From a phage, in the NCBI GenBank assembly GCA_011939005.1, contig GCA_011939005.1_4858.1: a DNA stretch of 64,000 nucleotides. One strand, written 5' to 3'. Made by a program: the position numbers and the translations under genes. The notes under the pieces were generated by a model. The model ran no database searches and was not told the origin of the DNA. It saw only the letters and a program-made list of their open reading frames with translations. This document shows, one piece after another, positions 1 through 18,383 of the stretch (position 1 is the first letter of the stretch; the number at the start of each line of letters is the position of its first letter).

Positions 1-1239
1 CACGTTCTTATCAGCAGAACGGTTATACTCACCTTTACGCATGGCTTCATCGTATTCACGACCAATCTCTTCACGGAAGTCGTTATAGACTTCATACGTC
101 TCAGAACAGAACGCCTTGTCAAGGATCTCAAACGCTTTCGGTGACCAGACAATGTTCTTGTCTTTGGACATCGCAAAATAGAACCGCACGATATCATTGT
201 AAAAACGTTTCAAAGCGTTCGCGTAGTGATCTAACTCGCGTTTGTTCTCTTCGGTACATGCGATATTGTTAACACCACGATCGCATTTGGTTTCGTCCCG
301 CCATACCTGAATATCAACGACACGAGAACCGGTACGTTCCATCTTTTCAAAGTCGCCGGCCTGACGCGCTTTGTAATGCTCAGGGTCAGCGTCAACATAC
401 TCACAACGGTCGAAGTGCGGAGAGATATGTTGTGTTTCACCTACGTGCGAGTCAATGGCTGCCCATAGCTTATCGAAACGGCGCGCGGCAATAACCAACC
501 CATCATCACGAATTGCCTGTCCTTTATTGGGCAGGTACTGTGGTCGACGAACGCCATCAATACCCGTTGTCCCATACGTGTCAAGCAGGTACTCGTCGTC
601 GCGCAAGGTAAAGTCAATTGCACGCAAACCATAAGCGTGCATCGCCTTCGCTGCAGTTTCGGAGATGGTGTACGAGTCCTCGATAATGTCCGGGTGCGAC
701 ATTGTCACGGTGTGCAGGTTGACCCCATCGACAAACTCACCGTCTTTCTGTGCCGGCAGTACGGTAAGCATTTCATCTTTTTCCAGGTGCTGCGTCTGTC
801 CGCGCAGCAACGCCTGAAGTTTCCCAGTAGCCTCTTTCTTAGACGAGAAAATGTTATCGTGGTTGGTGTAATACTTAATATCGATTACATCAATCATCAC
901 TTTGCGCTGGTTGGTTAAATCTGCGCGCTTGAAGAAGATAACATGCTGGAGCGGATCGTGATCCCCTTCACGACCATAGCGTGCAAAAACAGCTGCACGA
1001 GTAACACCTTCTTTGGTTGTGTAACTGCACACAGTACCACTGTCTTCCACGATATCGTTAAAACAATAATCGTGGTAGTTCACATCAGCGCCGGTAAAAT
1101 GGATAGTCGGATCTGGATTGTCCAGTGGTACCGCCGACTTCATATGTCCACCCACCATTGAGGCACGTGCCCCAGATACGCCAGTGATATTCACCTCACG
1201 GTCAGCAACGCTTGACATGAGTTCGACTGGTGTTTTCAT
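1..1239 (-). CDS. hypothetical protein, N-terminal portion (ORF runs off the window start)
   Basis: Minus-strand frame open from ATG at 1237-1239 (MKTPVELMSSVADREVNITG...) to position 1, checked by hand for about 330 nt; AAAAGGAG 8 nt upstream. Absent from the ORF track because it has no stop inside the window. Confidence 0.6.
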   Translation of the reverse strand, partial: MKTPVELMSSVADREVNITGVSGARASMVGGHMKSAVPLDNPDPTIHFTGADVNYHDYCFNDIVEDSGTVCSYTTKEGVTRAAVFARYGREGDHDPLQHVIFFKRADLTNQRKVMIDVIDIKYYTNHDNIFSSKKEATGKLQALLRGQTQHLEKDEMLTVLPAQKDGEFVDGVNLHTVTMSHPDIIEDSYTISETAAKAMHAYGLRAIDFTLRDDEYLLDTYGTTGIDGVRRPQYLPNKGQAIRDDGLVIAARRFDKLWAAIDSHVGETQHISPHFDRCEYVDADPEHYKARQAGDFEKMERTGSRVVDIQVWRDETKCDRGVNNIACTEENKRELDHYANALKRFYNDIVRFYFAMSKDKNIVWSPKAFEILDKAFCSETYEVYNDFREEIGREYDEAMRKGEYNRSADKNV

Positions 1240-1269
1240 TCGTAAATGCTCCTTTTGGTTACCTCGGTA

Positions 1270-1284
1270 AGATAATATCTATCT
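1270..1284. promoter_or_regulatory. copy 1 of recurring motif AGATAATATCTATCT, in divergent intergenic region
   Basis: Exact 15-mer between minus gene start 1239 and plus gene start 1306. Confidence 0.4.
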
Positions 1285-1305
1285 GTTTTATTTTAAGGAG
1301 AGACG

Positions 1306-1629
1306 ATGCTAGATAAATTTGCTACCTTATCCGAAATAATACCTTCGCCTGATTCGACCAAGTATAAGGTGTTGCATGACTATACAGACTTCCTTCGCAA
1401 ACACCCAGATACTACAGAAGAAGTTGTTGACCCAAAATATGCCTACCCAGAGGTACACAGTTTCTACGCGTACTGTCGTCTCAAACAGTACGATAATAGT
1501 ATTATTTATCCGATGATGTTAATGAACGGAATTTCTACTCCGTTTGATTTCACGCCAGAGATAAGAACCTTATTGGTTCCTAGTGTCGGTGTGGTAAGTA
1601 ACATCTTATCGACTATCGTAGAATCTTGA
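1306..1629 (+). CDS. hypothetical protein (107 aa)
   Basis: ORF with AAGGAGAG RBS about 8 nt upstream of ATG; followed by hairpin terminator. Confidence 0.5.
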   Translation: MLDKFATLSEIIPSPDSTKYKVLHDYTDFLRKHPDTTEEVVDPKYAYPEVHSFYAYCRLKQYDNSIIYPMMLMNGISTPFDFTPEIRTLLVPSVGVVSNILSTIVES

Positions 1630-1660
1630 AAAAAAGAAGGGACGCCCAGTCCCTTCTTTC
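1629..1660. terminator. bidirectional intrinsic terminator
   Basis: Stem GAAGGGAC/GTCCCTTC with A-run upstream and T-rich tract downstream, between convergent genes. Confidence 0.5.
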
Positions 1661-1666
1661 TAACGC

Positions 1667-3034
1667 TTAACGTAAATTAGCTGATGAGAATGGTAGGTTG
1701 CCTAAACTGCTGCTACTTCCGCCACCTAAACCACCCAGACCACCTAACACGTCACTACTCCCTCCTAAGAGGTTGGTGCTACCGCCGCCCAACTGCGTGC
1801 TACCCCCCAAGAGATTATTACTACTTCCCAGCAAACCAGAACCCAGACCACTTTCTTTCGTCACCGCATTACCACGCAGCGCTTCACCGAGAGACAGTTC
1901 TTTAATTGTCCCTTTCGGTAAATGGCCGTTGTTCTCACGCAGCGCTTCCTGAATCTTCGGTGCTAACGCGTTGAAGCTATTAGCTGAAGACGCCTGTTGC
2001 GCTTTCTTCGCACGGAAATAGTTTACCGGATCGTTGAGATCAAGATTTTCCTGCGGAGCTTGTTGAGAAGCTAAAGCAACGACCGGCTTTGTGCCGGCAG
2101 GTGTACGCCCGATACGGAAATCCGTTGCGGTGGTGTCTGTTGCCTGATCGGTGCGTGGGCCGGTATTATACGGCAGAGTTTGGATAACGTTATCATAAAC
2201 GCTCATGTTATCCAGTTGGCCAATCCATTCTTCTTCTAACGGACGCAGTGGAGTGTGGTCACGCAGACCACGAACCACTTGATTGTAGTTGGTCACGTAT
2301 TGTGCCCAACCGCGTGCCAAAGAACCGAAGTACGGACGCGGATCGTTAGAACCCGTAACCGAAGGATACCAACCAAACACTGCAGTGAGCAGGTTAAAGA
2401 TAATGACCTTATCCTGCTTACGCTGGAGCTTGGCACCGAAGAATGTTGCCGTACCATCCAGTGACTCTTCTTCAAACATGTGTTTGTAGTTCGCCACGCG
2501 GATATATTTGATACCTTCAATGGTCATATCGCTGGAGATGAAGATACTGGTGATCTTTGTCTTTTTATCTTCTTCCAGCAAACCGTAAACGTAGTTCTTC
2601 ACTGCGTGCCAGCTCTGAACCAGTTTCTTATCCATCGTCGGATCTTTCAGGTCAGCACAAACCACATCGCTTAAAAACTTCTTGTACGATGCCAGACGGA
2701 TATTTTTTCCTTCGGCTGCTGTTTCCAAAATCGCATCGATTAACTCGAAGCTTTTCAGGAAGAGGTTCGCGCTGATGGCTTTCTTCAGGAAACGAATCGT
2801 TCCAGATTCGCCAGCCAGTACCGATTCACACAGTGGGTGGAACGCATGACATTCACTACCTTCGTCATCTTCCAACCCACGCTTAATCATCGCTGCAGTT
2901 GGAAGCACCAAGCGGCGCTTCACTTTGTTGTAGGTGAACATTGCCGGATGACCATCATCGATGGTCAACATGTCACCTTCGAATCCGTATCCGAGCGAGG
3001 TCAGAAACGAACGGTAGAATTCAATCAATTTCAT
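1667..3034 (-). CDS. hypothetical protein with Gly/Leu-rich C-terminal tail (possible virion protein)
   Basis: 455-aa ORF; C-terminus LGGSTQLGGGSTNLLGGSSDVLGGLGGLGGG resembles tail of adjacent 3047..4747 product. Confidence 0.65.
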   Translation of the reverse strand: MKLIEFYRSFLTSLGYGFEGDMLTIDDGHPAMFTYNKVKRRLVLPTAAMIKRGLEDDEGSECHAFHPLCESVLAGESGTIRFLKKAISANLFLKSFELIDAILETAAEGKNIRLASYKKFLSDVVCADLKDPTMDKKLVQSWHAVKNYVYGLLEEDKKTKITSIFISSDMTIEGIKYIRVANYKHMFEEESLDGTATFFGAKLQRKQDKVIIFNLLTAVFGWYPSVTGSNDPRPYFGSLARGWAQYVTNYNQVVRGLRDHTPLRPLEEEWIGQLDNMSVYDNVIQTLPYNTGPRTDQATDTTATDFRIGRTPAGTKPVVALASQQAPQENLDLNDPVNYFRAKKAQQASSANSFNALAPKIQEALRENNGHLPKGTIKELSLGEALRGNAVTKESGLGSGLLGSSNNLLGGSTQLGGGSTNLLGGSSDVLGGLGGLGGGSSSSLGNLPFSSANLR

Positions 3035-3046
3035 GGTTAATAATCC

Positions 3047-4747
3047 TTAATCAATGAGACCGTTGCCGAGTCCGTTTCCGCCTATACCGCCTAAGCCACC
3101 ACCCAGGTCAAGACCTCCAAGAGGATCTAAGCCACCTGTGTTAGTTGGAATGTTAGATAGCATTCGACCCCGGCCTTGGCCTTTCTCGAATTCTGTATAA
3201 CCTTCTTCTACGGCTTTCAACAGCGTTGCGGTGTTCTGTGCCAGCTCACCAACGTATTTGAGATCGGTGGTGTTGCCGGTATGGAGACGGAATTGCATAA
3301 ACGACGCGTAGGTGTAATATTCCAGCGGTTCGTCGTCGACACGGATTTCAATACGAGTAACGGTCCCCAACAATGCGGTGACCAGCATGTGGCAGCGAAT
3401 ATGGTTATGTTTAGTAACCTGAACCATCGCTTCTTTCATGTTCTGCAAGAAACGACGACCTAACGCAGCAGGTAACTGATGGTGCGTGATGCTGCTGACT
3501 GAGTTAGGAATAACTTCCAGCGTAGGCTCTATCATGATATCTGTGTTGCGATTATCAAAGACAAAGCTCACTTCACCAATCAGGTTACGTGACATAATCG
3601 GCCCGATAGACATAGCCAGATCATACGCAACTAGACTACCCTGTGTGGAGAAGCCATTACGTCCAATCCAGTGGTCGGTTTGGTTAACCAGCCCTGCACC
3701 CAACCCACGGCGACTTGCCAGCGCCAGCGATTCACGGATACATTCATCCAACCGCATTGGGTTGACAATCGCATTACGCAAATCAGCCAAACGGAACGTC
3801 GCCTTACTGGTTGCTTTCCAACCGCCAGATACATCAGACATCCCGTTCTGGAGTGCTTGACGCATCGCAGCAATCAGTTCGTGGTTGCTGTAGTTACGGA
3901 TAACACCACGTTGCTTCAATTCAGATTCAACGCCGATGGAGTTATTACCTGCAAAGAAGCTTTCCACGCTACCGAGTTCGGTATCTACCCCAGAACTTGC
4001 CAGATACGCATTACTGATTGCAGATACGTAGTTTTCTGGACGCTGGAGTTGGGATACCATCAACTGTGGTGCAGAGCTACTGGTTGCGGATAGCACAGAG
4101 TCGCTCGTTGGGACGAACTTCTCACCGCTATTCATTTCAATACGTTTTACCATGTCCGCCGCTTTCGCGATCGAAATGATATCTACCGTACTTTCTGTTT
4201 GACCTTCAACAGACAACGCTTTCGATAAAACGTAGTTATCCAGTAGACGGAATGAGTCTGGGTTCAATGTTTTGCCGCCCAGGGCATCGTGTGTATACGT
4301 TGCCTGTAAGCCGTAGATGTCGTTAATGTACAACACCATATCGTCCGGCAGCAAGCTACCCAGGCTGGTTTCTGCCTGACTGGTATAACCGGAGACGATA
4401 TATTGCGTTTCCTGAGTGCGTGTTGCATTCAGAGGTTTGGCAATAAACACCGCCACGAAGTTAAAGATACCGGTATCACGTGATTCCCATTGGAACTGTA
4501 CAGGACGATTGTCATCATCGGACACGTTGATGAATGGACGCTCAAAACCATTCTGGGTGCCATCGAAGCCCACGATGGCAGATAATGCTTCTTGATACTG
4601 CTGTGTTCCCACAGCCTTTTCCCCGCCCAGTTCAACCGCTGCTGCTAAGTCATCCAGTGCACCCGTCGATGCGTTAAAGCCGATGCGGCGACGAACTTGC
4701 TCTGGAACATCGTAGACCGGATACATCAGTAGATTTACAAGCTGCAT
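3047..4747 (-). CDS. hypothetical protein with Gly-rich C-terminal tail (possible virion protein)
   Basis: 566-aa ORF; C-terminus GGLDPLGGLDLGGGLGGIGGNGLGNGL; tandem with 1667..3034. Confidence 0.65.
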   Translation of the reverse strand: MQLVNLLMYPVYDVPEQVRRRIGFNASTGALDDLAAAVELGGEKAVGTQQYQEALSAIVGFDGTQNGFERPFINVSDDDNRPVQFQWESRDTGIFNFVAVFIAKPLNATRTQETQYIVSGYTSQAETSLGSLLPDDMVLYINDIYGLQATYTHDALGGKTLNPDSFRLLDNYVLSKALSVEGQTESTVDIISIAKAADMVKRIEMNSGEKFVPTSDSVLSATSSSAPQLMVSQLQRPENYVSAISNAYLASSGVDTELGSVESFFAGNNSIGVESELKQRGVIRNYSNHELIAAMRQALQNGMSDVSGGWKATSKATFRLADLRNAIVNPMRLDECIRESLALASRRGLGAGLVNQTDHWIGRNGFSTQGSLVAYDLAMSIGPIMSRNLIGEVSFVFDNRNTDIMIEPTLEVIPNSVSSITHHQLPAALGRRFLQNMKEAMVQVTKHNHIRCHMLVTALLGTVTRIEIRVDDEPLEYYTYASFMQFRLHTGNTTDLKYVGELAQNTATLLKAVEEGYTEFEKGQGRGRMLSNIPTNTGGLDPLGGLDLGGGLGGIGGNGLGNGLID

Positions 4748-4759
4748 TTTAAATACTCC

Positions 4760-6394
4760 TTAAGAATTAAACCATTCAACTTCTTCTAACTTGCGACGTG
4801 CATTCAACACCATAAACTCCGCCAGGCTATTGTGCAGTGACAAGTGAGGTATATAGTTTGGCTGATCCGTCTCACACTTCAGCAGCGCAGCTGCTTCTGG
4901 TGTAGCCCTGAGATGGAACAGATACGGGTTGATGTGATCCTTGTGTAACAAGGTCAGTGATTCCCGTGGTGTAGATTGCGGTTCGAGATTACGCGGGTTG
5001 CGGTACTCCTGAAGATAATATCTATCTAAATCTGCTTTGAGTTCAGATCGAATTGGATCGGCTGCATAACCGGCAGACATCTCAGAACGCACCATATTGC
5101 AACTTAACAGTTGCGCAACGTCATACATTCCATAATTGAGATAAGTTGCCTGCGCCAACGCCATACCGTAGCGAAACGCTTCTGGTCCACATTCAGTATA
5201 CGTCTTATAATGCGCGCTACGATGGAGTGCTAATGCGACTAACCATTCATGCAACGTATAGACAGGACCGTCATGTGTTGCCAGTTGCGAATCAATCAAT
5301 AACTTAACATCTGCTGGAGCGGCATTATCCAGACGCATTGTTTTCAAGAAAGAGCGGTATTCTTTAAATACGTACTCGGTACGGACGTATTCTTTCATCT
5401 GTGCAGGAGAACGTGCCTGCACCAAATCCATGGCGTTTATCTTACCCTTTTCGCCATTGAATACCACACTTTCCGGATGCGCTTTTAACAGCACCGGCTG
5501 GTTAGAGATTTTGTTTGCAAAACCTGTTTCAATCTCTTGTTTAACCAGAAAATACATGCTGGTGACGATATTGTTGTTAACCATGATTTCAATCGGTAAT
5601 TCACCACCGACTTCACGGACAGCCAACAATTTAATAATAGCATACGCCAGGATATAATCTTCCATCATATCCGTGCCATAGCCCCGCACCGTAGCCAATA
5701 CCGACAAACTGGTGCTGTTCGTACCTTTGTTTGCCAGTTCTTTTTCTACCTTTTCCATCACTGTCTGTAGGAACCCACGCAGTTTCGGAATAGCAGGTAA
5801 AGACATGACTTCTGTGTCTTGAAGCATCTCCAGACAGTATGTCAGATTGTACACCATTTTCCGATGTGTTTCGATTGGCAAGTTCTTACCTATCGGGAAC
5901 GTCCCCATGGTGAGGAACACCGGAATATACGGTTTAATCATCAGGACCAGTATCAACAACTCGTAATAGTCCGGACGAATGTACGTCATCGCTTCCGGAT
6001 AATTACTGTTCATTTCATCGTGCGTATCTTCCATGTTCTGCGGAATCCACAGCTTATCGATGGGATACAGCTTACGATACACTTCAGCCTTGTGGAACTT
6101 CGCGATCATCTGCACAATCTTCGGCATGTGCTTACGCTGCGTTTCCGTCGATTCGTTTGCCAGCTCGTCCAGCATCAGATACGCCATGAACAGTTCATCT
6201 TGTTCGTCTGGCGTTAAATAATCCCACACGCGTTGTAATTCCATGAAGAGAATGTTGTCGCGTGCAATCTGTTTACCTTTAACAGTGATGTAGTCGGGTG
6301 CGTTGTTATCCTTCCGATAACGTAAGCCAATAAATGTGACCTCTTGACCATGATGCTCGATTGTCATCCGGTCTTTAATCTTCATAATTTTCAT
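4760..6394 (-). CDS. hypothetical protein (544 aa)
   Basis: Long ORF; GGAG RBS about 9 nt upstream of ATG at 6394; motif copy 35 nt upstream. Confidence 0.65.
   Translation of the reverse strand: MKIMKIKDRMTIEHHGQEVTFIGLRYRKDNNAPDYITVKGKQIARDNILFMELQRVWDYLTPDEQDELFMAYLMLDELANESTETQRKHMPKIVQMIAKFHKAEVYRKLYPIDKLWIPQNMEDTHDEMNSNYPEAMTYIRPDYYELLILVLMIKPYIPVFLTMGTFPIGKNLPIETHRKMVYNLTYCLEMLQDTEVMSLPAIPKLRGFLQTVMEKVEKELANKGTNSTSLSVLATVRGYGTDMMEDYILAYAIIKLLAVREVGGELPIEIMVNNNIVTSMYFLVKQEIETGFANKISNQPVLLKAHPESVVFNGEKGKINAMDLVQARSPAQMKEYVRTEYVFKEYRSFLKTMRLDNAAPADVKLLIDSQLATHDGPVYTLHEWLVALALHRSAHYKTYTECGPEAFRYGMALAQATYLNYGMYDVAQLLSCNMVRSEMSAGYAADPIRSELKADLDRYYLQEYRNPRNLEPQSTPRESLTLLHKDHINPYLFHLRATPEAAALLKCETDQPNYIPHLSLHNSLAEFMVLNARRKLEEVEWFNS
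5013..5027. promoter_or_regulatory. copy 2 of motif AGATAATATCTATCT, inside coding sequence
   Basis: Exact 15-mer plus 6 further identical bases (21 nt shared with copy at 6429) inside ORF 4760..6394, about 265 nt upstream of the start of 3047..4747. Confidence 0.3.
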
Positions 6395-6428
6395 TATAGT
6401 TGAACTCCGCGAATAGTCGATTGCACTG

Positions 6429-6443
6429 AGATAATATCTATCT
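6429..6443. promoter_or_regulatory. copy 3 of motif AGATAATATCTATCT
   Basis: Exact 15-mer 35 nt upstream of minus gene start 6394. Confidence 0.45.
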
Positions 6444-6490
6444 AAATCTTCTTACAGTGTGTGTTGCAGGACCACGCATAAGCGTTAATA

Positions 6491-6530
6491 GCCCAAGGTT
6501 TCCCTTGGGCGTATTTTTTATTTTGTTTCT
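6491..6530 (+). terminator. plus-oriented hairpin plus T-run
   Basis: GCCCAAGG-TTTC-CCTTGGGC followed by GTATTTTTTATTTTGTTT; oriented against the surrounding minus genes. Confidence 0.35.
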
Positions 6531-7228
6531 TAGAGTAATTCGTCGTAAGAATCAGTGGTTGCTGGAGGTGCAGATTGTTGCTGCTGTTGATAACCGCCGC
6601 CGCTACGCTGACCACCACCCTGGCCACCGCCGTATCCGCCACGACCGAAGCTACCACCACCTTGCTGGAATTCACGCGGCTTATATTTCTCTTCCAGGTT
6701 CTGTAAGAACTTCTCGAAGTTAGTGATAAACGCACGTGCGCAGCGCTCAGCAAGTTCTAAATCAGAAACCTGCTGGCCGTCGCGGAAAATACGGAAACCT
6801 TTCGGGTAGGAGAAGTAGAACTTCTTCTGGCGGGCACCAACGCCCTGGATTTCACCGGCAATAGCGATGAACGGTACCAGGTTGTCTTCACGGCCAACAA
6901 TCAGACTAACGGGCGGTTTGTTGCCGTTTTCGTTAGTAAACTTCAGCATACTCTTTTCGCTCTTACGCAGACAATCCTGCAGAGCTTCGATAATGGTACG
7001 ACAAACCGTAATCGGTGCAGAGAAATAGAGACCTTCGCCCTTACCAAAAGAGTAGCTAAACTTCATAGTTTCAACATCACCGTTGAAATCATTCGGTTCA
7101 ATGTTGAGTTTACGCGTACGGTTTTGCTGATCCGGTTCGGTCTGCGGGTAAAGCCATTTGTCTTTGAAAATTTCTTGGTTAATCATCATTTCATCCTTTT
7201 CGGAAAAGCAGTCTAGTGGTTCACACAT
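6530..7228 (-). CDS. hypothetical protein with Gly/Gln-rich C-terminal region and acidic tip (SSB-like tail; function unverified)
   Basis: C-terminus GGGSFGRGGYGGGQGGGQRSGGGYQQQQQ...DSYDELL; likely true start at MMINQ (about 7189) where AAGGA precedes ATG. Confidence 0.55.
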   Translation of the reverse strand: MCEPLDCFSEKDEMMINQEIFKDKWLYPQTEPDQQNRTRKLNIEPNDFNGDVETMKFSYSFGKGEGLYFSAPITVCRTIIEALQDCLRKSEKSMLKFTNENGNKPPVSLIVGREDNLVPFIAIAGEIQGVGARQKKFYFSYPKGFRIFRDGQQVSDLELAERCARAFITNFEKFLQNLEEKYKPREFQQGGGSFGRGGYGGGQGGGQRSGGGYQQQQQSAPPATTDSYDELL

Positions 7229-7254
7229 GATGTCCCACTAACGTAAATTTTAAC

Positions 7255-8091
7255 TTACTTCATAAGCCTGCGGAGCAGTTCAATTACAAATGGCTCATTC
7301 ACCAGTTTTAGACAGTTATAAATACGGTCCATTGTGGTATCCTGTTTCCAGCTGTACTTCTCTGCGGTTTTTAACACCACCCCACGCGTTTTGCGATCGA
7401 GGGGTGAAAACATTATCCCGTCGCCAAACAACGTCAGGAACGCTTTGTTAAACGGAATATGTTGGGGTTTCCCGTTAAGTTTGGTGTACCACTCCAGTTG
7501 TGTTTTCACTTTACCGGTGTGCGATTCCAACAAACCCAGTTTAGGGAAATCTTTACGTGCCAGGAGATCAGCTGGCATGTGGGTCAGTAACAGTGTGTCG
7601 CGGCTACCCTCTGGGAAAACATCGAATTGACGGAAGTAATTTTCGTGTTTCTCACCGTACATTTTTAAGGTGTCGTGTTCCAGTGCATTATAGTGCAGCT
7701 GGTTTGGCGTCATCTTATCCTGACCGCCTGCAATGTTTTTGAACGAGGCTTCGGGAAACACTTTGTTAGCGCTACGATAGCTACAAAGGTACGGAACGCA
7801 TAACACCGAAGGGGCTACCGCTCTCGCGGTAGCCGTAAGATTATTAATATCTTCTTCAATCGATGTTAGCATCACGTCGGGTGTTAACCGTTCTCTATTC
7901 TCTTCAAACGCATAGAAGGCGTTACGGAACAATGTCCGGAGATTCAGGTATATTTCCTGATAGGAATGGATAGGCAATTCACCTTTCCAGTCGGCGTATT
8001 CGCCGGTATGCAGCAGACCTTCAAACGCCAGCGAACTGGCGATTGACACTGAATAGAACCCGAAAGTGCGATCAACACTGATTGGATTCAT
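7255..8091 (-). CDS. hypothetical protein (278 aa)
   Basis: Long ORF in tandem minus-strand array. Confidence 0.6.
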   Translation of the reverse strand: MNPISVDRTFGFYSVSIASSLAFEGLLHTGEYADWKGELPIHSYQEIYLNLRTLFRNAFYAFEENRERLTPDVMLTSIEEDINNLTATARAVAPSVLCVPYLCSYRSANKVFPEASFKNIAGGQDKMTPNQLHYNALEHDTLKMYGEKHENYFRQFDVFPEGSRDTLLLTHMPADLLARKDFPKLGLLESHTGKVKTQLEWYTKLNGKPQHIPFNKAFLTLFGDGIMFSPLDRKTRGVVLKTAEKYSWKQDTTMDRIYNCLKLVNEPFVIELLRRLMK

Positions 8092-9239
8092 TCTATTTTC
8101 CTAATGATTGCAGTAACAACATCAGGGTCGTACTTCACTGATGTTAGCTCTTCGAGAACCAACCGTTCGAAGTTCTCAGGAGTAGGTTTTTCGTACAGTG
8201 GGGCTTCGTTCGAAAAACTCTTCACTAACAACTCCTCTTCTTCAGAGGAGCGCACACGTTCTCCAGATATGTGGAACGTGTATTCTTTTTTCCACCGACT
8301 GACGTATTCGGCCATCGGTGAGCCTGCGTAATACTCGACCTCAAATCGCCCAATAGCGGACGAGGGATGATTGTCGATGTATTCTAATGCAGAAAGACAA
8401 GCTGCTAACTGCGCATCAAAGTCTTCCTGTGCCCGAATCTTTTTCTGCGGGCACGCGCGTGGGTTAACCAGGAAATAATCCCTGGCAACCGTATCGGTGA
8501 AATCGACAAGAGCTACGCCTTTGTCCTCCTCTTCACCTTGAGATAGTCGCTCAGGACTACCTACAACTCTTATCTTGTCTAATTCCTTGGGTCGATGGTC
8601 ATGCCCGATAAATATCAGGTGCTTGACTCTCGGCAACCAGAACTCCTCGTGGAAAGAACGAGGGGACTCGACAGGGAGTTGAAACTGGAAGCAGCCGTGC
8701 ATGAAGATAAAGTCTAACTTCTCCAAGCCTCGTGTCGCCATCAGTTCTGCCATTTCTGCCTCAGTGGCAGCAGCATTAATTTCATCGACGCCAGCAGCTT
8801 TATATTCGTCCTGCACCCAACCTACCATCGCATCGAGAGCCGGATCGTAAAATATCCCGATCCCTGCCAAATACAAACAGTCTGCGCCTATACTGATGTT
8901 CAGCGACTCAACTATTTTGGACTGGCCATGGTCATGGGACGGTGTTCCCTCAACGATGCGAACGGCGGTATTAGTGGCCTTAGACCACTGGAGCAACCAC
9001 GTCAAGAAGCCCACAGCTTCTTGAGAATCTTCCTGGCGAAGATGTCGGGAATCATCAAATAAATCCCCTGCTATATAAAAGGCGTCAAGCGTATTTTCGC
9101 AGCTAATGAGTATCTCACGTATCACATCCACGATGTGCCATGTGGGCACACGTTTATGCAACAAATGGATATCGTTAGTGTTCAAAAGGCGCTTAACGCC
9201 TTCTGGTCTCTTAGGAGGTTTAGTAATCTTCTCCATCAC
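8088..9239 (-). CDS. calcineurin-like metallophosphoesterase (Mre11/SbcD-type nuclease or phosphatase)
   Basis: Ordered motifs DIH, GDLFD, GTPSHD, FMHG, GHDH match the metallophosphoesterase signature. Confidence 0.6.
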   Translation of the reverse strand: MMEKITKPPKRPEGVKRLLNTNDIHLLHKRVPTWHIVDVIREILISCENTLDAFYIAGDLFDDSRHLRQEDSQEAVGFLTWLLQWSKATNTAVRIVEGTPSHDHGQSKIVESLNISIGADCLYLAGIGIFYDPALDAMVGWVQDEYKAAGVDEINAAATEAEMAELMATRGLEKLDFIFMHGCFQFQLPVESPRSFHEEFWLPRVKHLIFIGHDHRPKELDKIRVVGSPERLSQGEEEDKGVALVDFTDTVARDYFLVNPRACPQKKIRAQEDFDAQLAACLSALEYIDNHPSSAIGRFEVEYYAGSPMAEYVSRWKKEYTFHISGERVRSSEEEELLVKSFSNEAPLYEKPTPENFERLVLEELTSVKYDPDVVTAIIRKIE

Positions 9240-9894
9240 CGATCCCTACGATTGGCTGCGTTTGAGCTGGGGCTTGCACCGAAGTCTCTGCAGCTGTCGC
9301 CGTGTTTTTACCGCCGGTAATTTTATCGACGTATTCAACCAACCCTTCCGGATATGGCAATTGACCACCCACACCGTAGCGTCGGAAAATCCAGTTCAGC
9401 AAGTCAATAATGTACTTCGCACGAACTGAATTTTCAGCCAGAGACATATTTTCGATCCCGGTTAAGGTGTAATCGATCATCTTGTACATCTGGGTTTCAC
9501 CGACGGTTGCAATCACATCAACCTGACGACGGATGTACTCAGTCTCATCGGAGAGGGAGGGTTCGCCGTCAACGGTGATTAACGAGCGGCCGGTGTTCAG
9601 CAGAGCAGGGATGGTAAATAGCAGTTTGCTGTTATCAGCATCGTCCACAATCTGTAGGGGTACAAATGGACTTCCTACGTAAGCCGTCCAGGTCTCTTCG
9701 TTAAAAGTACCATCAAGCATCCCGGACAGCAGTGGTAAGCCCTGTCGACGGAACTGTGCTTCGGTGAACACACTGCAAACGTTCTGGCTTTCCGCCAAAT
9801 CGTTTTCAATCTCTTTGAGTTTGTTATACTCAAAGCGCATCTGCTCATTCATCTGACTTAACGGTACACCGTTAAATGTAGGTTCCTGGCTCAT
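9220..9894 (-). CDS. hypothetical protein (224 aa)
   Basis: ORF overlapping neighbours by a few nt (coupled). Confidence 0.55.
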   Translation of the reverse strand: MSQEPTFNGVPLSQMNEQMRFEYNKLKEIENDLAESQNVCSVFTEAQFRRQGLPLLSGMLDGTFNEETWTAYVGSPFVPLQIVDDADNSKLLFTIPALLNTGRSLITVDGEPSLSDETEYIRRQVDVIATVGETQMYKMIDYTLTGIENMSLAENSVRAKYIIDLLNWIFRRYGVGGQLPYPEGLVEYVDKITGGKNTATAAETSVQAPAQTQPIVGIGDGEDY

Positions 9895-10280
9895 TACATA
9901 TCCTCAATCGCACTCGACTCGGTATCCACGTACCGCTCAACATCGTACCATTCACCGTCTACAACTTCTTGCACACGGACACTAATGAAGATGCGGTAGC
10001 GCACATCTGAATCTTTTAAAAACTCCCAGCTGGTTTCAACTTCAACGCCAGCAGGAAATACGTTCCCGTAGAGGTTCTCCAAATCCATTTTAATCTGGGC
10101 AACCATCCCGTCGGGATCTTGTGCAAACACAGCTTGCGTATACGCAAGTGATTTAATGTTCCCACGATAAACCACCGATTGGCTATAGCCAGACTCGGTG
10201 TAATGGTTCATCAACTCACGCGCCTTTTCCTGGGGTGTACGTGCCCAGCCACGTGTGGATAAGGTTCCTACCGCAATCAT
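9894..10280 (-). CDS. hypothetical protein (start revised to ATG at 10280)
   Basis: Track ORF extends to 10400 across a terminator hairpin; AGGAG precedes ATG at 10280 (MIAVGTLSTRGW...). Confidence 0.5.
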   Translation of the reverse strand: MIAVGTLSTRGWARTPQEKARELMNHYTESGYSQSVVYRGNIKSLAYTQAVFAQDPDGMVAQIKMDLENLYGNVFPAGVEVETSWEFLKDSDVRYRIFISVRVQEVVDGEWYDVERYVDTESSAIEDM

Positions 10281-10330
10281 GTTAGCTCCTGTCAAATTCA
10301 AGGTAGGATGCTGCATACAGCCCCCAGTGA

Positions 10331-10365
10331 AGAAAAAAAGAGGGGCCGAAGCCCCATCTTTTTTA
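10331..10365. terminator. bidirectional intrinsic terminator
   Basis: GGGGC-CGAA-GCCCC hairpin flanked by A-run and T-run. Confidence 0.5.
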
Positions 10366-10944
10366 ACACGTCGCGCCAAGTTCCGAACAGGGATCACCAT
10401 CTTCCCAGTCGAAAGCTGACATGCGTGCCCAGTTAAGTTGAATATCCACTTTATCGATTCGACTCAGTCGTACTGCACGATCTTCATTGGTAGCCCATTG
10501 CCAAATCTTATCTTCGTCGTACTTCGTCGAAATGCCCGATGTTGCTTCGCGGAAGTGGTCATCGGTACGCATATACGCATTGCCTTTGAACACATCCAAC
10601 CGAGAAAAGCCGTTCTCATAACCAGTCGCCATACCGTCATTATACAACTTACGATATTCCGGCATGGCAACGAGGAATGGCTGTAAAGCAGCATTGGCGA
10701 ACTGGAATTCACCCAACTCTTCGATCTGTCTTACCATCTCTACCGCATCGCTATAACGTAATTTACGTGCGGTACTGAATGTTTCACGGAAACGCTCCAG
10801 TGAGATTAAGTCCTGACAATGTTCTTTTACACGGTCAACGAGATCGGGTGCCAGGCTAGACAGCGAAAACGATTCTTTGAATACGCTGAGTGCCCCGCTA
10901 CCTTCGGTCTGTTTCGTCCACACCGTGCTACCTTGTAGCCACAT
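10363..10944 (-). CDS. hypothetical protein (193 aa)
   Basis: ORF followed by terminator. Confidence 0.55.
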   Translation of the reverse strand: MWLQGSTVWTKQTEGSGALSVFKESFSLSSLAPDLVDRVKEHCQDLISLERFRETFSTARKLRYSDAVEMVRQIEELGEFQFANAALQPFLVAMPEYRKLYNDGMATGYENGFSRLDVFKGNAYMRTDDHFREATSGISTKYDEDKIWQWATNEDRAVRLSRIDKVDIQLNWARMSAFDWEDGDPCSELGATC

Positions 10945-10957
10945 TACAATACTCCTA

Positions 10958-11230: not shown

Positions 11231-12640
11231 CCTCCCTAACTTTCACTAGGGCACAGACCATACCTTAGCCATGAGCTTTCGCTTTTAGGCTCCTCCCCAC
11301 TTCGGTGCTATTCTAAGCACCTACGAGCATTTCAGCTCCGGTCGTTGAACGTTCCTCTTACGAGGCTTCGCTGCTGATTACCCATTGTTAAAACCCTTAG
11401 CAGTATTGTTTAGCATAGGTCATCTCATTACTTGTTTCCGACTTTCGTCTCCACATGGGCAAATGAGCTTTAGGGGTTCCCAGCAATTCAGGGAGATACA
11501 CATCAGAGGTTTCCCGTCTGATGGGGCAAGGCTATTCTGCTGTTAAATATTGAACTTCAAATTGTTTGTACTTTCCGGTTTGTGAGACTGCTTTGGCCAC
11601 AGTGTTTCTTTTCACACCAATCGCGTTTGAAAACTCTTGTAAAGAATTCCAAATGGTTTTGATGTTAGTGGTCGTATCAGTCACACGCACCATCGACGGT
11701 ACACGTTTTGGCATTTGTGATTGTGGTCTGGGTTTGCGGAGATCGATCATGTCAGTTATGGCAACATCGATATCCACCATGTACCACGCCTCATATCCAA
11801 ACTTAGTCAAATCGACGGAACCGCCGTTGAGATGGGAATAGATGAGGTGTGGTTTTATACCCACGTATTCGGCTGCTGCCGGTACAGACGAGAACAGGAA
11901 ATATGGTTCCTTACCAACTTTTCTGATGACCAGTCCTTTATTACCTGGTCCTGAGTTCTTACCAATAGAATTCTTGGTGAGAATCCAGTCGTCTTCCGGT
12001 ACCTTGACTTCAAACACATCATTTAGCGTGTATTGACGATTAAGCCCACGTGCGATCGAGCTTGAAACCAAGTGCCGATTAACGCCGATATACTCAGCCG
12101 CCTTAGTCATGCTACGGAACTGAACTATATCGCCGGTCTCGAGATTTCTGACATCGACAATAATGTTGTCAGTTCTTAGACCAGTATCGAAAGCATGATT
12201 AACATTTTCCTTTCGATAACACCACTCAAGGTTTACCACAGATGGATTACTCTTAACACCATCACGATGGTTAACCTCGTCACCACATTTATCCAGGAAC
12301 ACAGTCGCAACAATTCGATGTAAATGGGTTTCGCCTTTACAACCGCGCACTCCCAGGTATCCACTTTTGAGAATGAAGACTGGTAGCGGCGTGACCATAC
12401 CTTTTACTTTACAGTCGCCCAATGCATCAACAAAGAGATCACGATAGACTGGGTGTCTGTAATACCCCTTAAAAACATACGAGGGCTCTAAATCATCGCG
12501 TAGTTTCCTACTCAACTTTTCAATAATCACAATTTATTCCCTATTACCAGTCACCGACTAAGAATAAGGAATAGCAGAATAACACTTTTACCGTTAGCCA
12601 TCTTGATCACACGGTCAGAGATACGCAGCGAACACTGGTT
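11231..12640 (-). mobile_element. group I intron with embedded HNH homing endonuclease gene (boundaries approximate, within about 15 nt)
   Basis: Interrupts a beta-prime-like reading frame; 300-nt core (11231..11531) carries P-like AATTGCTGGGAA (11475..11489), Q-like AATCAGCAG (11371..11379) and R-like GTTCAACGAC (11341..11350) in canonical order on the sense strand; a G precedes the proposed 3' junction at 11231. Confidence 0.6.
11532..12530 (-). CDS. HNH homing endonuclease (intron-encoded)
   Basis: HNH core VNHRDGVKSNPSVVNLEW...NVNHA plus three repeated helix-turn-helix-like modules (AAEYIGVNRHLVSS, AAEYVGIKPHLIYS, SNAIGVKRNTVAKA); GTG start about 20 nt after the exon-readthrough stop. 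Confidence 0.75.
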   Translation of the reverse strand: MIIEKLSRKLRDDLEPSYVFKGYYRHPVYRDLFVDALGDCKVKGMVTPLPVFILKSGYLGVRGCKGETHLHRIVATVFLDKCGDEVNHRDGVKSNPSVVNLEWCYRKENVNHAFDTGLRTDNIIVDVRNLETGDIVQFRSMTKAAEYIGVNRHLVSSSIARGLNRQYTLNDVFEVKVPEDDWILTKNSIGKNSGPGNKGLVIRKVGKEPYFLFSSVPAAAEYVGIKPHLIYSHLNGGSVDLTKFGYEAWYMVDIDVAITDMIDLRKPRPQSQMPKRVPSMVRVTDTTTNIKTIWNSLQEFSNAIGVKRNTVAKAVSQTGKYKQFEVQYLTAE

Positions 12641-13957: not shown

Positions 13958-13974
13958 ACTGTCAACCTCAACAA

Positions 13975-14039: not shown

Positions 14040-15893
14040 TTACAGTTTGAAGTTGCTCAGAGTCACGCCCAGACCGAAATCGGAACCGCTTGCAGACAGG
14101 CCGTTGCCAGACAGCGTGAAGTCTTCCCCACCGTTGTTGAAGAACAGAGAGGTCGCCATCGTGTTGTAGGCATTTACACCAGTCATAGACCAGGTGCAGT
14201 TGTTACGGACGAAGTCCAGCAGGCATTTACCGAAGATCGGGTTGATAGCCATATCCAGAGATTCACCGGTAGCTTGCGGTGCTTTGGATGCGAACAGAGA
14301 AGCGGCCAGTTTCAGCATGTAGATACGCTGTTGACGCTCGTTCAGTTCACGGTGGCTGTAGGACTGTGCGTTCAGGTAGCTATAGACGTCGTTCGCGTTA
14401 TCACCCAGTTTGGTAACAACGGAAATCAGGTCCATATCCTGGAAGCTACGTTTCTGTGCAGTACCGGTGTAAACACCGGAAACAGTCGGTACGGCTGCTT
14501 TCACGATGTGGCTGCAATGGATGGTACCATTGAAGGCATCGCCCAGCTGTGCTTTCAGTGCAGAAGCAAATACTGCAGTGAAGCTGGTCGCTGCAACAAC
14601 TTCGCCGTTCTGATCACGCGGGGACATGGAATTCAGAATAGCGAGCAGCTGTTTCAGAGAGTTGTCGTAACCGACCGCAATTTCAGACAGCAAAGTAGAC
14701 AGACCACCCAGGCCGTTACCGGCACGATGGCTAACTACCAGTGCTGCTTCACGCGGTGCGAACATATCCAGGCAACCTTCGATAGCTTCACGGCTACCGT
14801 CGATTTTGGATACATCAGGACGAGCGTCAGCACCCCAGGACAGGTATTCTGCCACACGGGAGAACTTGCGATCTTGTTTGTTCAGACGTTTCACAAACAG
14901 GTCACGCCAGCCACCGATTGCCGCGATTTCTGCAAATGCAGCCAGCAGCAGCAGTTGACGTTCATACGGTGCCATTGCACCTTCAGTTTGAGAATCGATC
15001 AGACTTACTACGATTTCAGCCTGCAGCTGTTTCAGGTCGTAGACGCCGTTAACGACAGGCTTCTGACCGGTGAAACGCATATTGACGAAACCGGTACCGG
15101 ATACACGCGGATACACCTGTACCTGATTGGTGTCCAGCAGAGTCGGAGTGGCGTCGGTTACGTTGCTTGGGCTGTGCTCAACGGTGATTGCGAAATCAGC
15201 ACGCTGTGCGTGGCCGTTAGCATCAACAACCGCACCATCTTCCAGCGGCATTACTGCGGCCTGATAACGGTCATGCTTACGCAGGTTCAGCGTACCCAGG
15301 TAGCCTGCGATACGACCGAAGATGCCCATCATCATCTGACCCATCAGAGTACGTGCCCACTCAGCATCCAGAACTTTACCCAGGTCTGGTACGGAGTTGA
15401 TGATCATGAAGTTCGCATTGGTCAGACCATGCGCTTCCATGATGTTTTTCTGTACTACTGCCAGCACGTCTTTGTTGAACAGTTCAGTGATGGTGTAGTA
15501 GTCTTCCTGGCCGTTGTTGGTAGTTTCTTTCAGACGCAGAGACTGACCGCGTTCAAAGAAGATGATACCGTACAGCCAGTGGCCCTGCCATTGGCCTGCG
15601 ACGTACGCCGCGGAACCCATTTCGTTACCCACGCCGACGATGGTGCCCCAGCGGAATGCGTTGAGGTATTCGTTGCTTTTCTTCAGCTCATCCAGGAGGT
15701 TGGTGAAGTGCATTGCATAGGTGCTGATGTTGCGGATGCCAAATGCGTTATCGAATTGGCTGACAGTAGAAGTACCCGGCACAGCAGTTTGCACTTTTAC
15801 AGTCTCGTTGCCCAGACCGCCCAGTGGTGCGGTGTCTTGAGTCTGAGTGTTGTTCTGCTGAGCGTTGTTGTTAGAGTCAACGATTTTTACCAT
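14040..15893 (-). CDS. hypothetical 617-aa protein, apparently monocistronic; candidate abundant protein (phage-nucleus shell protein or capsid protein; unverified)
   Basis: AAGGAA RBS; two motif copies upstream and a terminator downstream; low-complexity N-terminal (NNNAQQNNTQTQ) and C-terminal (GNGLSASGSDFGLG) tails around an ordered core. Confidence 0.7.
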   Translation of the reverse strand: MVKIVDSNNNAQQNNTQTQDTAPLGGLGNETVKVQTAVPGTSTVSQFDNAFGIRNISTYAMHFTNLLDELKKSNEYLNAFRWGTIVGVGNEMGSAAYVAGQWQGHWLYGIIFFERGQSLRLKETTNNGQEDYYTITELFNKDVLAVVQKNIMEAHGLTNANFMIINSVPDLGKVLDAEWARTLMGQMMMGIFGRIAGYLGTLNLRKHDRYQAAVMPLEDGAVVDANGHAQRADFAITVEHSPSNVTDATPTLLDTNQVQVYPRVSGTGFVNMRFTGQKPVVNGVYDLKQLQAEIVVSLIDSQTEGAMAPYERQLLLLAAFAEIAAIGGWRDLFVKRLNKQDRKFSRVAEYLSWGADARPDVSKIDGSREAIEGCLDMFAPREAALVVSHRAGNGLGGLSTLLSEIAVGYDNSLKQLLAILNSMSPRDQNGEVVAATSFTAVFASALKAQLGDAFNGTIHCSHIVKAAVPTVSGVYTGTAQKRSFQDMDLISVVTKLGDNANDVYSYLNAQSYSHRELNERQQRIYMLKLAASLFASKAPQATGESLDMAINPIFGKCLLDFVRNNCTWSMTGVNAYNTMATSLFFNNGGEDFTLSGNGLSASGSDFGLGVTLSNFKL

Positions 15894-16078: not shown

Positions 16079-17167
16079 GTGGAATCTAAGGAGTCTGCCA
16101 TGTTCAGCCAAGCCGAGTTAAACCAAGTGGCCATAAAGGGTCACAGCACGGACCCCTCCGCTATAACATTAGCGGCTCACGTAAAAAACAACAGCCAGCG
16201 TATACGCAACTACTTCGAACAGCTTAATCGCAGTGCTGGTAATGGCCATTTGTTGCAACAGGTGTTGTCTGCCATCGGCTATGCCGGTGAACCAGAGTAC
16301 GAAGACATCGAATGGGCTTGCCGTCGCAAGCTTGTTCAGATCGGTAACGCCTTACGCTTGACATCTGTTGGTGAGTACGGTCAAATCTTTAATAGCAAGT
16401 TTATCCAGGGCCAAGATGAGGTAATCTCTCTCGTAGCCCGCCCAGTAAATCCAGACCTTTCGTTCCGCGACTACACCCCCGCCCGTTACCTCTACCATGA
16501 GTATACCAACCTCAATTGGAAGTTCGGTGACGGACGGCCCCGAGGTGTTACGGTGATCGAAATCAACCTGGTTGCTTTGCTTTGGCAATATGTCAAAGGC
16601 CAGCAGCACTACAGTCGCGGTACCGAACCTATTGCCACACCTGTGTATCTCCAACGACATGTGATCTCTCGCATGTTGCCGAGCTACATGGATATCGCCT
16701 TTGTAAATATACATCGCGCGATAGCCTTCGGGAAAGAGATTGAACCGGATGAAACATTACGTGTCATTCCTGTTCCGCCGCTTCAAGCTTTAGCTGTGAA
16801 GCACGCAAAAGGCATCCGTAGTAAACTACTGGCTGCCAACCCGTTACCGGGACAAGTCTTAAACAACATCCCGTTGTTCTTCCAACACCCTGATGAAGAA
16901 GGCCACACAGCACTGGAACTGATTGTCTTTCGAGAACCAGGTCAAACACTGCAGAACACCTGGCACCAGAACATGGTGAACTGGTACTGGGCACTGTTTT
17001 GTCTTCAATACAACCAGGGGAATATGGAGAAACACAAACGTACGATGTTGGTTGATTTGGCGCGTTATGTGGACTCTAAAGTCCTCACACGTTTGACCAA
17101 ATCCTTCTATAACTTTATCCAACGCGATTTGATTATCCCGTTGACGACAGAGCTAGAAGAAAAATAA
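16079..17167 (+). CDS. hypothetical protein (probable start ATG 16100)
   Basis: AAGGAG 6 nt upstream of ATG at 16100 (MFSQAELNQ...); followed by terminator. Confidence 0.6.
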   Translation: MESKESAMFSQAELNQVAIKGHSTDPSAITLAAHVKNNSQRIRNYFEQLNRSAGNGHLLQQVLSAIGYAGEPEYEDIEWACRRKLVQIGNALRLTSVGEYGQIFNSKFIQGQDEVISLVARPVNPDLSFRDYTPARYLYHEYTNLNWKFGDGRPRGVTVIEINLVALLWQYVKGQQHYSRGTEPIATPVYLQRHVISRMLPSYMDIAFVNIHRAIAFGKEIEPDETLRVIPVPPLQALAVKHAKGIRSKLLAANPLPGQVLNNIPLFFQHPDEEGHTALELIVFREPGQTLQNTWHQNMVNWYWALFCLQYNQGNMEKHKRTMLVDLARYVDSKVLTRLTKSFYNFIQRDLIIPLTTELEEK

Positions 17168-17215: not shown

Positions 17216-17252
17216 CAAAAACTACACACTTCGGTGTGTAGTTCTTTTTTTA
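17216..17252. terminator. intrinsic terminator (bidirectional)
   Basis: CTACACAC-TTCG-GTGTGTAG hairpin then TTCTTTTTTTATTT; short A-run upstream. Confidence 0.55.
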
Positions 17253-17921
17253 TTTGCTGTCTGGGTGGTTCTTGAGGAAGTTTAAAGCATGTTCAACCGC
17301 AGCGGGATCTAGGGTTTGTACCGCAGTAAACGCCACCTCAATTTCAACACTCGACGACTTCTTTTTCTTCCCGCATTGATAGTAGGCAATACCCAACTGT
17401 TTACACACAGAAGCGACATTCGCATCCGTAAAACGAACGACATGCGTATTGCTACCCGGATCGATAACCACGAAATCGACATCAATCACCGCATTAGGTG
17501 ACCAGACTTCCGGCCCACGTACGCCATCGCGGAGAACAGCAGAATCACCAACCCAAGGTAGTTTTCGCAGGTATTCGACTAACGCCACTTCGCGAGACTT
17601 GTGCGACATAGCCCATTCGATATTAGCTGACTGAACTTCTTCAACACACTTATAGTGCCAGTTCATTTCAGTAAGCAGCTGTTTTGCCAGAGGTGTGGTC
17701 GGGTGAACAGCGACTAATAACTGAGTGCCTTTACCATGCGGTTGTGTAACTGATTGTGCCAGTGGTGTACGGAAGTTACGAATCGCTTCACTATAACCAC
17801 TCTGAGCAAAGGCTTTCTCTACGCGTTTGCTTACTTGATTAATGAGATCGTCTCGGTTGACGGTGAGATAAGTCAATTCGGGTATTGACATTGGTAACTT
17901 CAAATCTTGTTCATCACTCAT
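17250..17921 (-). CDS. hypothetical protein (223 aa)
   Basis: ORF in tandem array. Confidence 0.6.
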   Translation of the reverse strand: MSDEQDLKLPMSIPELTYLTVNRDDLINQVSKRVEKAFAQSGYSEAIRNFRTPLAQSVTQPHGKGTQLLVAVHPTTPLAKQLLTEMNWHYKCVEEVQSANIEWAMSHKSREVALVEYLRKLPWVGDSAVLRDGVRGPEVWSPNAVIDVDFVVIDPGSNTHVVRFTDANVASVCKQLGIAYYQCGKKKKSSSVEIEVAFTAVQTLDPAAVEHALNFLKNHPDSK

Positions 17922-18115
17922 TTTATCGTCTCCATGAAATCACTTGCGTACGGTTTACCCCACACAGTGATACTACGTTTCCGTTTGGCATCCAATGCCG
18001 TGATATGCACCGTTTCGCCTGCCTGATGTAACTCAATATCCACGCAACCCCGTTCTTCGAGGTCGCGACGGATTGCGGTTATCATCTCTGTGGACTTCCC
18101 GCTATTTCGATACAT
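17918..18115 (-). CDS. hypothetical small protein (65 aa)
   Basis: Short ORF with start/stop overlap to neighbours. Confidence 0.4.
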   Translation of the reverse strand: MYRNSGKSTEMITAIRRDLEERGCVDIELHQAGETVHITALDAKRKRSITVWGKPYASDFMETIK

Positions 18116-18383
18116 ACCCTTCCACCCGCACGTTTAAACCGCCTATTGCTGCAAACCAACCGTCGAGAGGATTGTCAAATTGCTTGTCAATAGACACAAC
18201 CGGTTTCATGGTTTTCCAACGATCGTCGCGTGGCGACACTGAACCTTCACACGATGCCAGTGTTTGAAACTGCGTTGGCAAAGACAACACATGCTGCCGT
18301 ACCAGGTTAGGCTGGCTGTGCAAATAGAGCTGTCGCCAGCCCCAGTTATTTGCTTTACTGTTTCGTTTCGACACAATGTTCAT
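18102..18383 (-). CDS. hypothetical small protein (93 aa)
   Basis: Short ORF in the operon. Confidence 0.4.
   Translation of the reverse strand: MNIVSKRNSKANNWGWRQLYLHSQPNLVRQHVLSLPTQFQTLASCEGSVSPRDDRWKTMKPVVSIDKQFDNPLDGWFAAIGGLNVRVEGYVSK

Follow-up and report, generated by a model that had tools for sequence, protein, structure and literature searches.

A probable early promoter conserved within the gp30 coding sequence of SPN3US-like jumbo phages

Why should a sequence of 21 nucleotides (nt) stand twice, letter for letter, in a phage genome, once between two genes and once inside a gene? The question is raised by a 64,000-nt stretch of phage DNA (NCBI GenBank assembly GCA_011939005.1, contig GCA_011939005.1_4858.1), referred to here as the window and numbered along its + strand. 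At 99% identity, the region matches SPN3US-like jumbo Salmonella phages (Seoulvirus); it runs as the reverse complement of the SPN3US record and is about 86% coding. A first reading of the letters without database searches, the sequence-only reading, had picked out the 21-mer AGATAATATCTATCTAAATCT at 5013-5033 and 6429-6449 and had suggested that the first copy could be an internal promoter for the gene at 3047..4747. The repeat itself is as described: AGATAATATCTATCTAAATCT is present exactly twice in the window, with no further matches there even when up to three mismatches are allowed and with 0 matches in 100 dinucleotide-preserving shuffles. The first copy does lie inside the minus-strand open reading frame (ORF) 4760..6394, where it is read as TTA GAT AGA TAT TAT CTT CAG (LDRYYLQ), and the second does lie between ORFs 6530..7228 and 4760..6394, which are 135 nt apart. 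Identity spans exactly 21 nt, the flanks differing on both sides (a at 5012 against g at 6428, g at 5034 against t at 6450), and on the coding (minus) strand both copies contain AGATAGATATTATC. ORF 4760..6394 corresponds to gp30 of SPN3US (SPN3US_0030), a homolog of phiKZ gp68, and is followed on the same strand by gp31 (3047..4747) and gp32 (1667..3034). From comparative sequence analysis, we regard the internal copy as probably a conserved internal early promoter for gp31-gp32.

The sequence AGATAGATATTATC is the core of a motif of about 40 nt, in which an A/T tract precedes the core and a conserved G follows 6 nt downstream. A census of SPN3US, performed by pattern search with positions compared to the annotation tables, finds about 24 copies genome-wide. 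All are co-oriented with the downstream gene, and only the copy internal to gp30 is not intergenic. Alignment of the 24 SPN3US copies gives the consensus TCnAAAAAATTTC-AGATAGATATTATC-TnnGTGAGA, where the G six bases past the core is nearly invariant, as is the pattern G-A-A-AT-TTA within the core. The window holds nine strong copies, all on the minus strand. Eight of these (1271, 6430, 15941, 16034, 24909, 27873, 35430 and 50496) lie in intergenic DNA and precede a minus-strand gene by 34-150 nt. Copies precede the genes for the non-virion RNA polymerase (nvRNAP) subunits gp30 and gp34, for which early expression would be expected, as well as many small genes. In the case of gp34, an nvRNAP beta-like gene, the upstream copy (1271..1284, minus strand) has a perfect core. 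In the case of gp30, the intergenic copy (6419..6458, minus strand; core 6430-6443, 21-mer 6429-6449, conserved G near 6424) scores 36.6 bits in the window and is its predicted early promoter. Its core ends 35 nt before the ATG at 6394, a start near 6424 would give a 5' untranslated region (5'UTR) of about 30 nt, and a copy upstream of the gp30 homolog is kept in all relatives examined.

In each jumbo phage that encodes its own RNA polymerases, an AT-rich motif centred near -10 is found upstream of early operons, and such motifs have been attributed to promoters of the virion RNA polymerase (PMC7598289; PMC8244752). Because of the anatomy of the motif, the analogy with phiKZ and this jumbo-phage literature, we infer that the family comprises the early promoters of the SPN3US clade, the counterpart of the phiKZ early promoter. 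Recognition would presumably be by the virion-packaged multisubunit RNA polymerase, as argued from phiKZ and AR9 (PMC7598289). A sigma-70 scan does not flag the motif sites, and overall it returns 26 sites with 27 expected. A literature search for the motif string itself returned nothing relevant.

Tandem copies at 15941-15954 and 16034-16047 (minus strand), 93 nt apart, lie upstream of 14040..15893 (SPN3US_0022). From RefSeq locus-tag order, synteny and protein size, this gene would be the diverged homolog of chimallin that has been reported for SPN3US under the name 'gp244' (PMC9365700), and it too would be expected to be expressed early. Two perfect cores 198 nt apart, at 72486 and 72684 of the SPN3US record (L010 38486-38499 and 38684-38697), lie in the 333 nt that separate gp75, the major capsid gene, from gp76, an unexpected place for an early promoter; the interval between the two cores could hold a small unannotated gene or RNA. 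Finally, a palindromic motif-like sequence, AGCTAGATATTAGC, occurs at 48943-48956 (both strands) in the homolog of the HD-domain gene gp251 of SPN3US, approximately 80 nt upstream of gp252. As it has no A/T tract and falls below the family score threshold, this site is probably not a promoter.

Does the copy inside gp30 belong to this family, or does it merely resemble it? The element spans 5003..5042 on the minus strand, with a perfect 14-nt core, AGATAGATATTATC, at 5014-5027, an A-rich tract at 5032-5040, and the conserved G, which marks the predicted start region, near 5008, all laid over the L-D-R-Y-Y-L-Q codons of gp30. Its upstream tract reads CTCAAAGCAGATTT, compared to the consensus TCnAAAAAATTTC, and the orthologs retain TCAAAA. 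A position weight matrix (PWM), 40 nt wide, was built from the 24 SPN3US sites, each site being scored with the matrix from the other 23. The internal copy scores 32.2 bits and ranks 17th of the 24 in SPN3US (29.1 bits in the window), which places it above the promoters of gp30 (30.3 bits) and gp34 (24.7 bits) by the same leave-one-out procedure. Because the score is taken over all 40 nt, the flanks of the internal copy fit the family as well as its core does. When 114 kb were scanned on both strands, family copies all reached at least 29 bits and the best other site reached 14.2. Judged by sequence, then, the internal copy is a real member of the family and not an accident of coding.

Family membership could still serve some purpose at the DNA level other than productive transcription of gp31. 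Within the gp30-32 operon, the site might bind or pause the phage polymerase or a regulator, start antisense transcription, or be used by host sigma-70 RNA polymerase through its TATTAT hexamer. The core is nearly palindromic (GATATTATC compared to GATAATATC), a canonical + strand terminator (6491-6530) lies roughly 50 nt past the intergenic copy in the antisense direction, and the distance of about 260 nt to gp31 is atypical. Against this, the internal copy and its orthologs preserve the orientation-specific flanks, with the A/T tract upstream and TnnGTGAG downstream of the core in the sense direction, reverse-complement matches score no more than 14 bits while sense sites score at least 29, and 24 of 24 copies are co-oriented with the downstream gene. 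A host sigma-70 site is further disfavoured in that the sites go unflagged in the sigma-70 scan and have no -35 element. We consider this family of explanations improbable, although it is the strongest of the competitors.

A second explanation holds that the nucleotides are kept only for the residues D-R-Y-Y, the promoter likeness being coincidental and without function in the DNA. Y459 and Y460 are indeed invariant in the gp30 family, and a related D-E-L-Y-P stands at the corresponding point of phiKZ gp68. Eight phages representing five genera, their protein identity to the window reaching down to 37%, were aligned over the gp29-gp31 region, and codon usage was compared across six divergent lineages. 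The same codon is kept at 20 of 150 conserved degenerate amino-acid positions of gp30 (13%), yet at the motif four consecutive codons plus one base, GATAGATATTATC (GAT AGA TAT TAT C), are invariant across all six lineages. This 13-nt run is the longest invariant stretch in the 1.6-kb gene, the next longest being 6 nt at the start codon, and a run of such length has P=0.0012 by permutation of codon columns. The AGA within it is, in five lineages, the only AGA among the 27-33 Arg codons of gp30; in the genes of the window, AGA accounts for 4.9% of Arg codons. The converse is seen in CR5 and Phobos, where the 10-nt promoter core ATATATTATC is intact although D-R-Y-Y has given way to E-I-Y-Y and D-I-Y-Y (R to I, D to E). 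That sequence matches the core common to all copies found in a 50-kb stretch of CR5. Within those 50 kb, the pattern ATAT[AG]TTATC occurs at only four sites, three of them intergenic and promoter-like and the fourth the internal copy. The flanking A-tract and the downstream G, moreover, also match the promoter consensus. The 13-nt invariant run, the rare AGA and the retention of the core where residues change indicate that selection on the internal copy acts on DNA and not only on protein, and we give the purely protein-based explanation very little credence.

The internal core is also old. It sits at the same codons in phages whose gp30 proteins are only 37-58% identical, and on this comparison its origin predates the split of Seoulvirus, Erskinevirus, Machinavirus, Wellingtonvirus and Derbicusvirus. 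Among IMG/VR viral contigs, a scan yielded 13 loci of the clade, four of them metagenomic, and the internal copy is found at that position in every one. Conservation of the copy in relatives had been named beforehand by the sequence-only reading as a point on which its proposal could fail; the copy is kept at the nucleotide level in every relative examined. Conservation in the 13 loci, together with a full family score that includes the flanks, lends strong comparative support to its suggestion of a promoter for 3047..4747.

The weakest explanation, that the 21-nt identity reflects a recent copy or gene conversion between two sites of which the internal one has no selected function, takes its appeal from the fact that in this lineage only the match runs past the core, by 6 nt upstream and 1 nt downstream, SPN3US having one flank mismatch, but is scarcely credible when the internal core sits at the same codons across five genera and the extra flank identity needs a single point change within a T-rich part of the consensus. 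Identity over all 21 nt is limited to the lineage of this phage. In SPN3US the intergenic copy carries a single mismatch in its upstream flank, SPAsTU and pEa_SNUABM_29 diverge further in the flanks, and what is conserved across relatives is the 13-14-nt core with consensus-like flanks. The perfect 21-mer is a lineage-specific coincidence superimposed on two presumably functional sites and not a sign of recent duplication, although a conversion tract could lie behind the last few identical flank bases.

As an internal early promoter for gp31-gp32, the preferred reading, the internal copy would act as follows. The two 21-mers would be two members of the early-promoter family, read by the virion RNA polymerase early in infection. 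The intergenic copy (core 6430-6443) would drive gp30, with transcripts covering gp30-gp31-gp32, and the internal copy (core 5014-5027) would be a second promoter, placed in the 3'-proximal D-R-Y-Y codons of gp30. From this second promoter, minus-strand transcripts would start near 5008 with a leader some 260 nt long, include gp31 and gp32 only, and end at a hairpin at 1634-1658. The gp30 stop and the gp31 start are 12 nt apart with no hairpin or terminator in the gap, and gp31 has its own ribosome-binding site, AAGGAG, overlapping the gp30 stop codon. From these features and the hairpin past gp32, transcripts from the intergenic promoter should span gp30-gp32 and those from the internal promoter gp31-gp32. 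The two downstream genes would thereby receive early input that is independent of, and added to, read-through from the gp30 promoter. The consequence would be a separately set, extra early expression of gp31, which is probably a PicA-like protein, and of gp32, relative to the polymerase subunit encoded by gp30.

Several observations weigh against such a promoter. The copy is co-oriented with gp31 but lies within gp30 with its core 266 nt from the gp31 ATG, neither intergenic nor at short distance like the rest of the family. The resulting leader of about 260 nt is an outlier against the 34-150 nt of the other copies, and no unusual structure is predicted in it relative to shuffled controls (z=-0.63). 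The core contains a sigma-70 -10-like hexamer, TATTAT, so that recognition by host RNA polymerase is formally possible. The homologous phiKZ gp68 codons (D-E-L-Y-P) have no early-promoter core. Pairwise BLASTP between gp31 and phiKZ gp69, the PicA protein, is not significant (E=2.3). Finally, the literature searched returned no transcript 5'-end or promoter data for phages of the SPN3US clade. For comparison, 5'UTRs in phiKZ are mostly 31-40 nt (PMC8244752). A search downstream of the internal promoter for a hidden ORF or in-frame restart yielded only ORFs of 22-34 amino acids; the one in-frame ATG, which would give a 17-amino-acid tail, is not conserved in relatives. The length of the leader may reflect where the protein could tolerate the motif.

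Comparison with phiKZ places both sites in context. Upstream of phiKZ gp68, an A/T tract is followed by TATATTAC, 33 nt before the ATG, and TATATTAC is a sequence that we take to be the core of the phiKZ early promoter, extended -10-like in character. Shared between the two systems are the AT-rich core, the upstream A/T tract, the position some 30-60 nt before start codons, and co-orientation with the gene. The core itself differs, being AGATAGATATTATC or AGATATATATTACY here and TATATTAC in phiKZ, and the internal copy departs from phiKZ early promoters in lying in coding sequence, with 266 nt between it and the next start codon. The order of hairpin, TATG and early motif ahead of the gp68 homolog is common to both phages. 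The TATG lies at 6477..6480 on the minus strand, between the gp29 hairpin and the early motif, as part of a conserved TTATGYG found in seven of eight aligned phages, with GATATGCC as the phiKZ counterpart upstream of gp68. The late promoter element of phiKZ, used by the nvRNAP, is T-3 A T G+1, a tetranucleotide not sufficient alone in that phage (PMC7598289). The element at 6477-6480 is the same, but the match is one of 4 nt only. On this sequence evidence, gp30 and gp68 may each carry tandem late and early promoters.

The internal element, by contrast, has no phiKZ counterpart. Because the core is missing from the homologous codons of phiKZ, the comparison indicates that the element arose in, and is specific to, the enterobacterial group of SPN3US and the Erwinia and Cronobacter phages, and is not general to gp68 genes. 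The sole candidate for an early core within phiKZ gp68, GATATTAC (L009 4026), was judged a chance match, since no A/T tract accompanies it and it lies away from the homologous codons. The closest parallel in phiKZ is the class of internal transcription start sites (iTSS) defined by differential RNA-seq (dRNA-seq), in which a promoter within one gene serves downstream genes of the operon (PMC8244752). Unlike that class in general, the internal copy has been held through the divergence of at least five genera, constrains codon choice as seen in the rare AGA, and shows amino-acid change only where the core permits.

A bolder version of the proposal, which we put forward tentatively and think rather unlikely as a whole, goes further. 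The internal promoter would be a deeply conserved dual-coding element that shapes the nvRNAP specificity subunit and provides a separate early circuit for the PicA-like factor. The D-R-Y-Y codons and the rare AGA may then be forced, with R-to-I or D-to-E replacement occurring only where the core permits. Regulatory roles of their own could then fall to the unusually long leader (about 260 nt) and perhaps to the terminator at 6491-6530, which faces the antisense direction.

That terminator had also been pointed out by the sequence-only reading, as a hairpin and T-run that could end plus-direction transcripts. The structure is present on the + strand, with GCCCAAGG (6491-6498), a TTTC loop and CCTTGGGC (6503-6510) followed by GTATTTTTTATTTTGTTT. 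The GC-rich hairpin (6491-6510) and T-rich run (6512-6528) occupy 6491..6530, directly past the gp29 stop codon (6530-6532). Like intrinsic and bidirectional terminators, it has a GC-rich 8-bp stem (six GC pairs), a 4-nt loop and a T-run, here GTATTTTTTATTTT, and it is the top terminator-like site in window positions 1-20000. Unlike the usual intrinsic terminators of this phage, its T-run is antisense to every neighbouring gene; on the coding strand an A-run precedes the hairpin and no U-run follows it. Elsewhere in the window, upstream of the copies at 27873 and 50496, terminators have the canonical form on the coding strand. As to the supposed function, no + strand transcription unit leading into the hairpin was found: every gene between 1667 and 15893 is read from the minus strand, gp33 (1306..1629), the closest gene on the + strand, is followed by its own hairpin at 1634-1658, and no + strand copy of the promoter motif exceeds 14 bits. 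The proposed terminator of plus-direction transcripts thus holds only in part: the structure is a canonical hairpin with T-run on that strand, but no unit entering it was found.

A different role is suggested by comparison with relatives. A hairpin stands directly past the stop codon of gp29 or its homolog, phiKZ gp67, in all eight relatives and in phiKZ itself, with differing stems (SPAsTU, pEa29, phiEaH2, Huxley, Wellington and CR5, for example), and this conservation of position despite different stems argues for function at the site. The + strand T-run is strong only in members of Seoulvirus and weak in more distant relatives. The hairpin might mainly form the 3' end of minus-strand gp27-gp29 transcripts, the + strand T-run being secondary. 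In favour of this are the placement right after the stop, the weakness of the adjacent A/T-run in distant relatives, and the separate hairpin of gp33, the sole + strand gene nearby. Opposed to it are the missing coding-strand U-run, which the other terminators of the window have, and the rank of the site as the best + strand intrinsic-terminator match in 20 kb. We find the two sides evenly poised: the hairpin may be a 3'-end element for gp27-29, a guard against antisense transcription, or both.

The hairpin at 1634..1658, AAGAAGGGAC-gccca-GTCCCTTCTT, lies between the convergent genes gp32 (minus) and gp33 (plus). An A-run (on the + strand) borders one side of it and a T-rich run the other; on the minus strand the hairpin is followed by a T-run, as in a canonical terminator. 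It resembles a bidirectional terminator, is likely the end of the gp30-32 unit, and would also stop + strand transcripts from gp33. A similar bidirectional terminator-like sequence, GGGGCTTCGGCCCC, with T-runs on both strands, is seen at 10342-10355, where ORFs 9894..10400 and 10363..10944 overlap.

The identities of the genes flanking the internal copy rest on several lines of comparison. For gp30, a phmmer search of PDB sequences matches PHIKZ068 (chains 7OGP_B and 9RJS_B, E=1.3e-6), tblastn from gp30 reaches PHIKZ068 as well, both proteins match PHROG 3209 over their full length, and the gene order SbcD-gp28-gp29-gp30-gp31-gp32 parallels phiKZ gp65-gp70. By these comparisons gp30 is a homolog of phiKZ gp68, the fifth subunit of the nvRNAP. 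The proposed target of the internal promoter, gp31, is a homolog of phiKZ gp69 by position and at the level of PHROG: PHROG 3141 matches both at full length (gp31, E=6.6e-157; phiKZ gp69, E=2.7e-179), and the two genes share position and similar length. A tblastn search with gp31 does not reach phiKZ, and PDB searches with gp31 and gp22 found no match. Given that the basis is PHROG and synteny and that pairwise BLASTP is not significant, homology of gp31 to PicA/Imp1, the nuclear import factor phiKZ gp69, is probable and not proven. In phiKZ, gp69 (PicA) is an essential nuclear-import factor and a core-genome gene of the chimalliviruses (PMC11087766). The last gene of the predicted gp30-gp31-gp32 unit, gp32, is placed by the ORF map, the SPN3US annotation and PHROG 3520. 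Pfam gave no matches for gp29-gp33 or the chimallin-like gene, and Rfam gave none in window positions 1-20000.

Other features of the neighbourhood concern genes upstream of gp30. The gp29/phiKZ gp67 homolog (ORF 6530..7228; PHROG 3284) ends, at 6530-6680, in a Gly/Gln-rich tail and an acidic tip (...DSYDELL) that resemble the C-terminal tail of bacterial single-stranded DNA-binding proteins. Relative to SPN3US, a 1.41-kb insertion at 11186-12596 interrupts the homolog of gp23, an nvRNAP beta-like subunit gene, and carries ORF 11532..12530 (minus strand), an HNH_3 plus NUMOD1 (I-HmuI-like) homing endonuclease of PHROG 59. The insertion is probably an intron or other mobile endonuclease element in a polymerase gene and recalls the intron endonuclease of PhiPA3 (PMC11620839); Rfam gave no intron match for it at the gathering threshold. 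A second insertion relative to SPN3US, of approximately 656 nt, occupies 17264-17919 between the gp21 homolog (16079..17167) and the gp20 homolog (18102..18383). Its ORF, 17250..17921 (minus strand), encodes a 223-amino-acid protein of PHROG 14096 with no Pfam match.

Transcription in SPN3US-like jumbo phages is unmapped as far as the literature searched shows, and a promoter consensus is now provided for the clade. The promoter type itself is already known; what the sequence comparison adds is an apparent jumbo-phage early promoter that is unusually well conserved in an internal position. The predicted gp31-gp32 transcription unit is one that annotation alone would miss. Promoter and protein would share the same 13 nucleotides, with the promoter dictating codon choice, so synonymous recoding of gp30, whether in engineering or in CRISPRi-ART and antisense studies, could change expression of the downstream genes. 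Lying between the gene for a sigma-like nvRNAP subunit and a probable PicA homolog, the element offers a testable handle on the early balance of two machines in nucleus-forming phages. If the dual-coding proposal were true, the dosage or timing of the import factor could, for example, be uncoupled from the dosage of the polymerase subunit in nucleus-forming enterobacterial phages.

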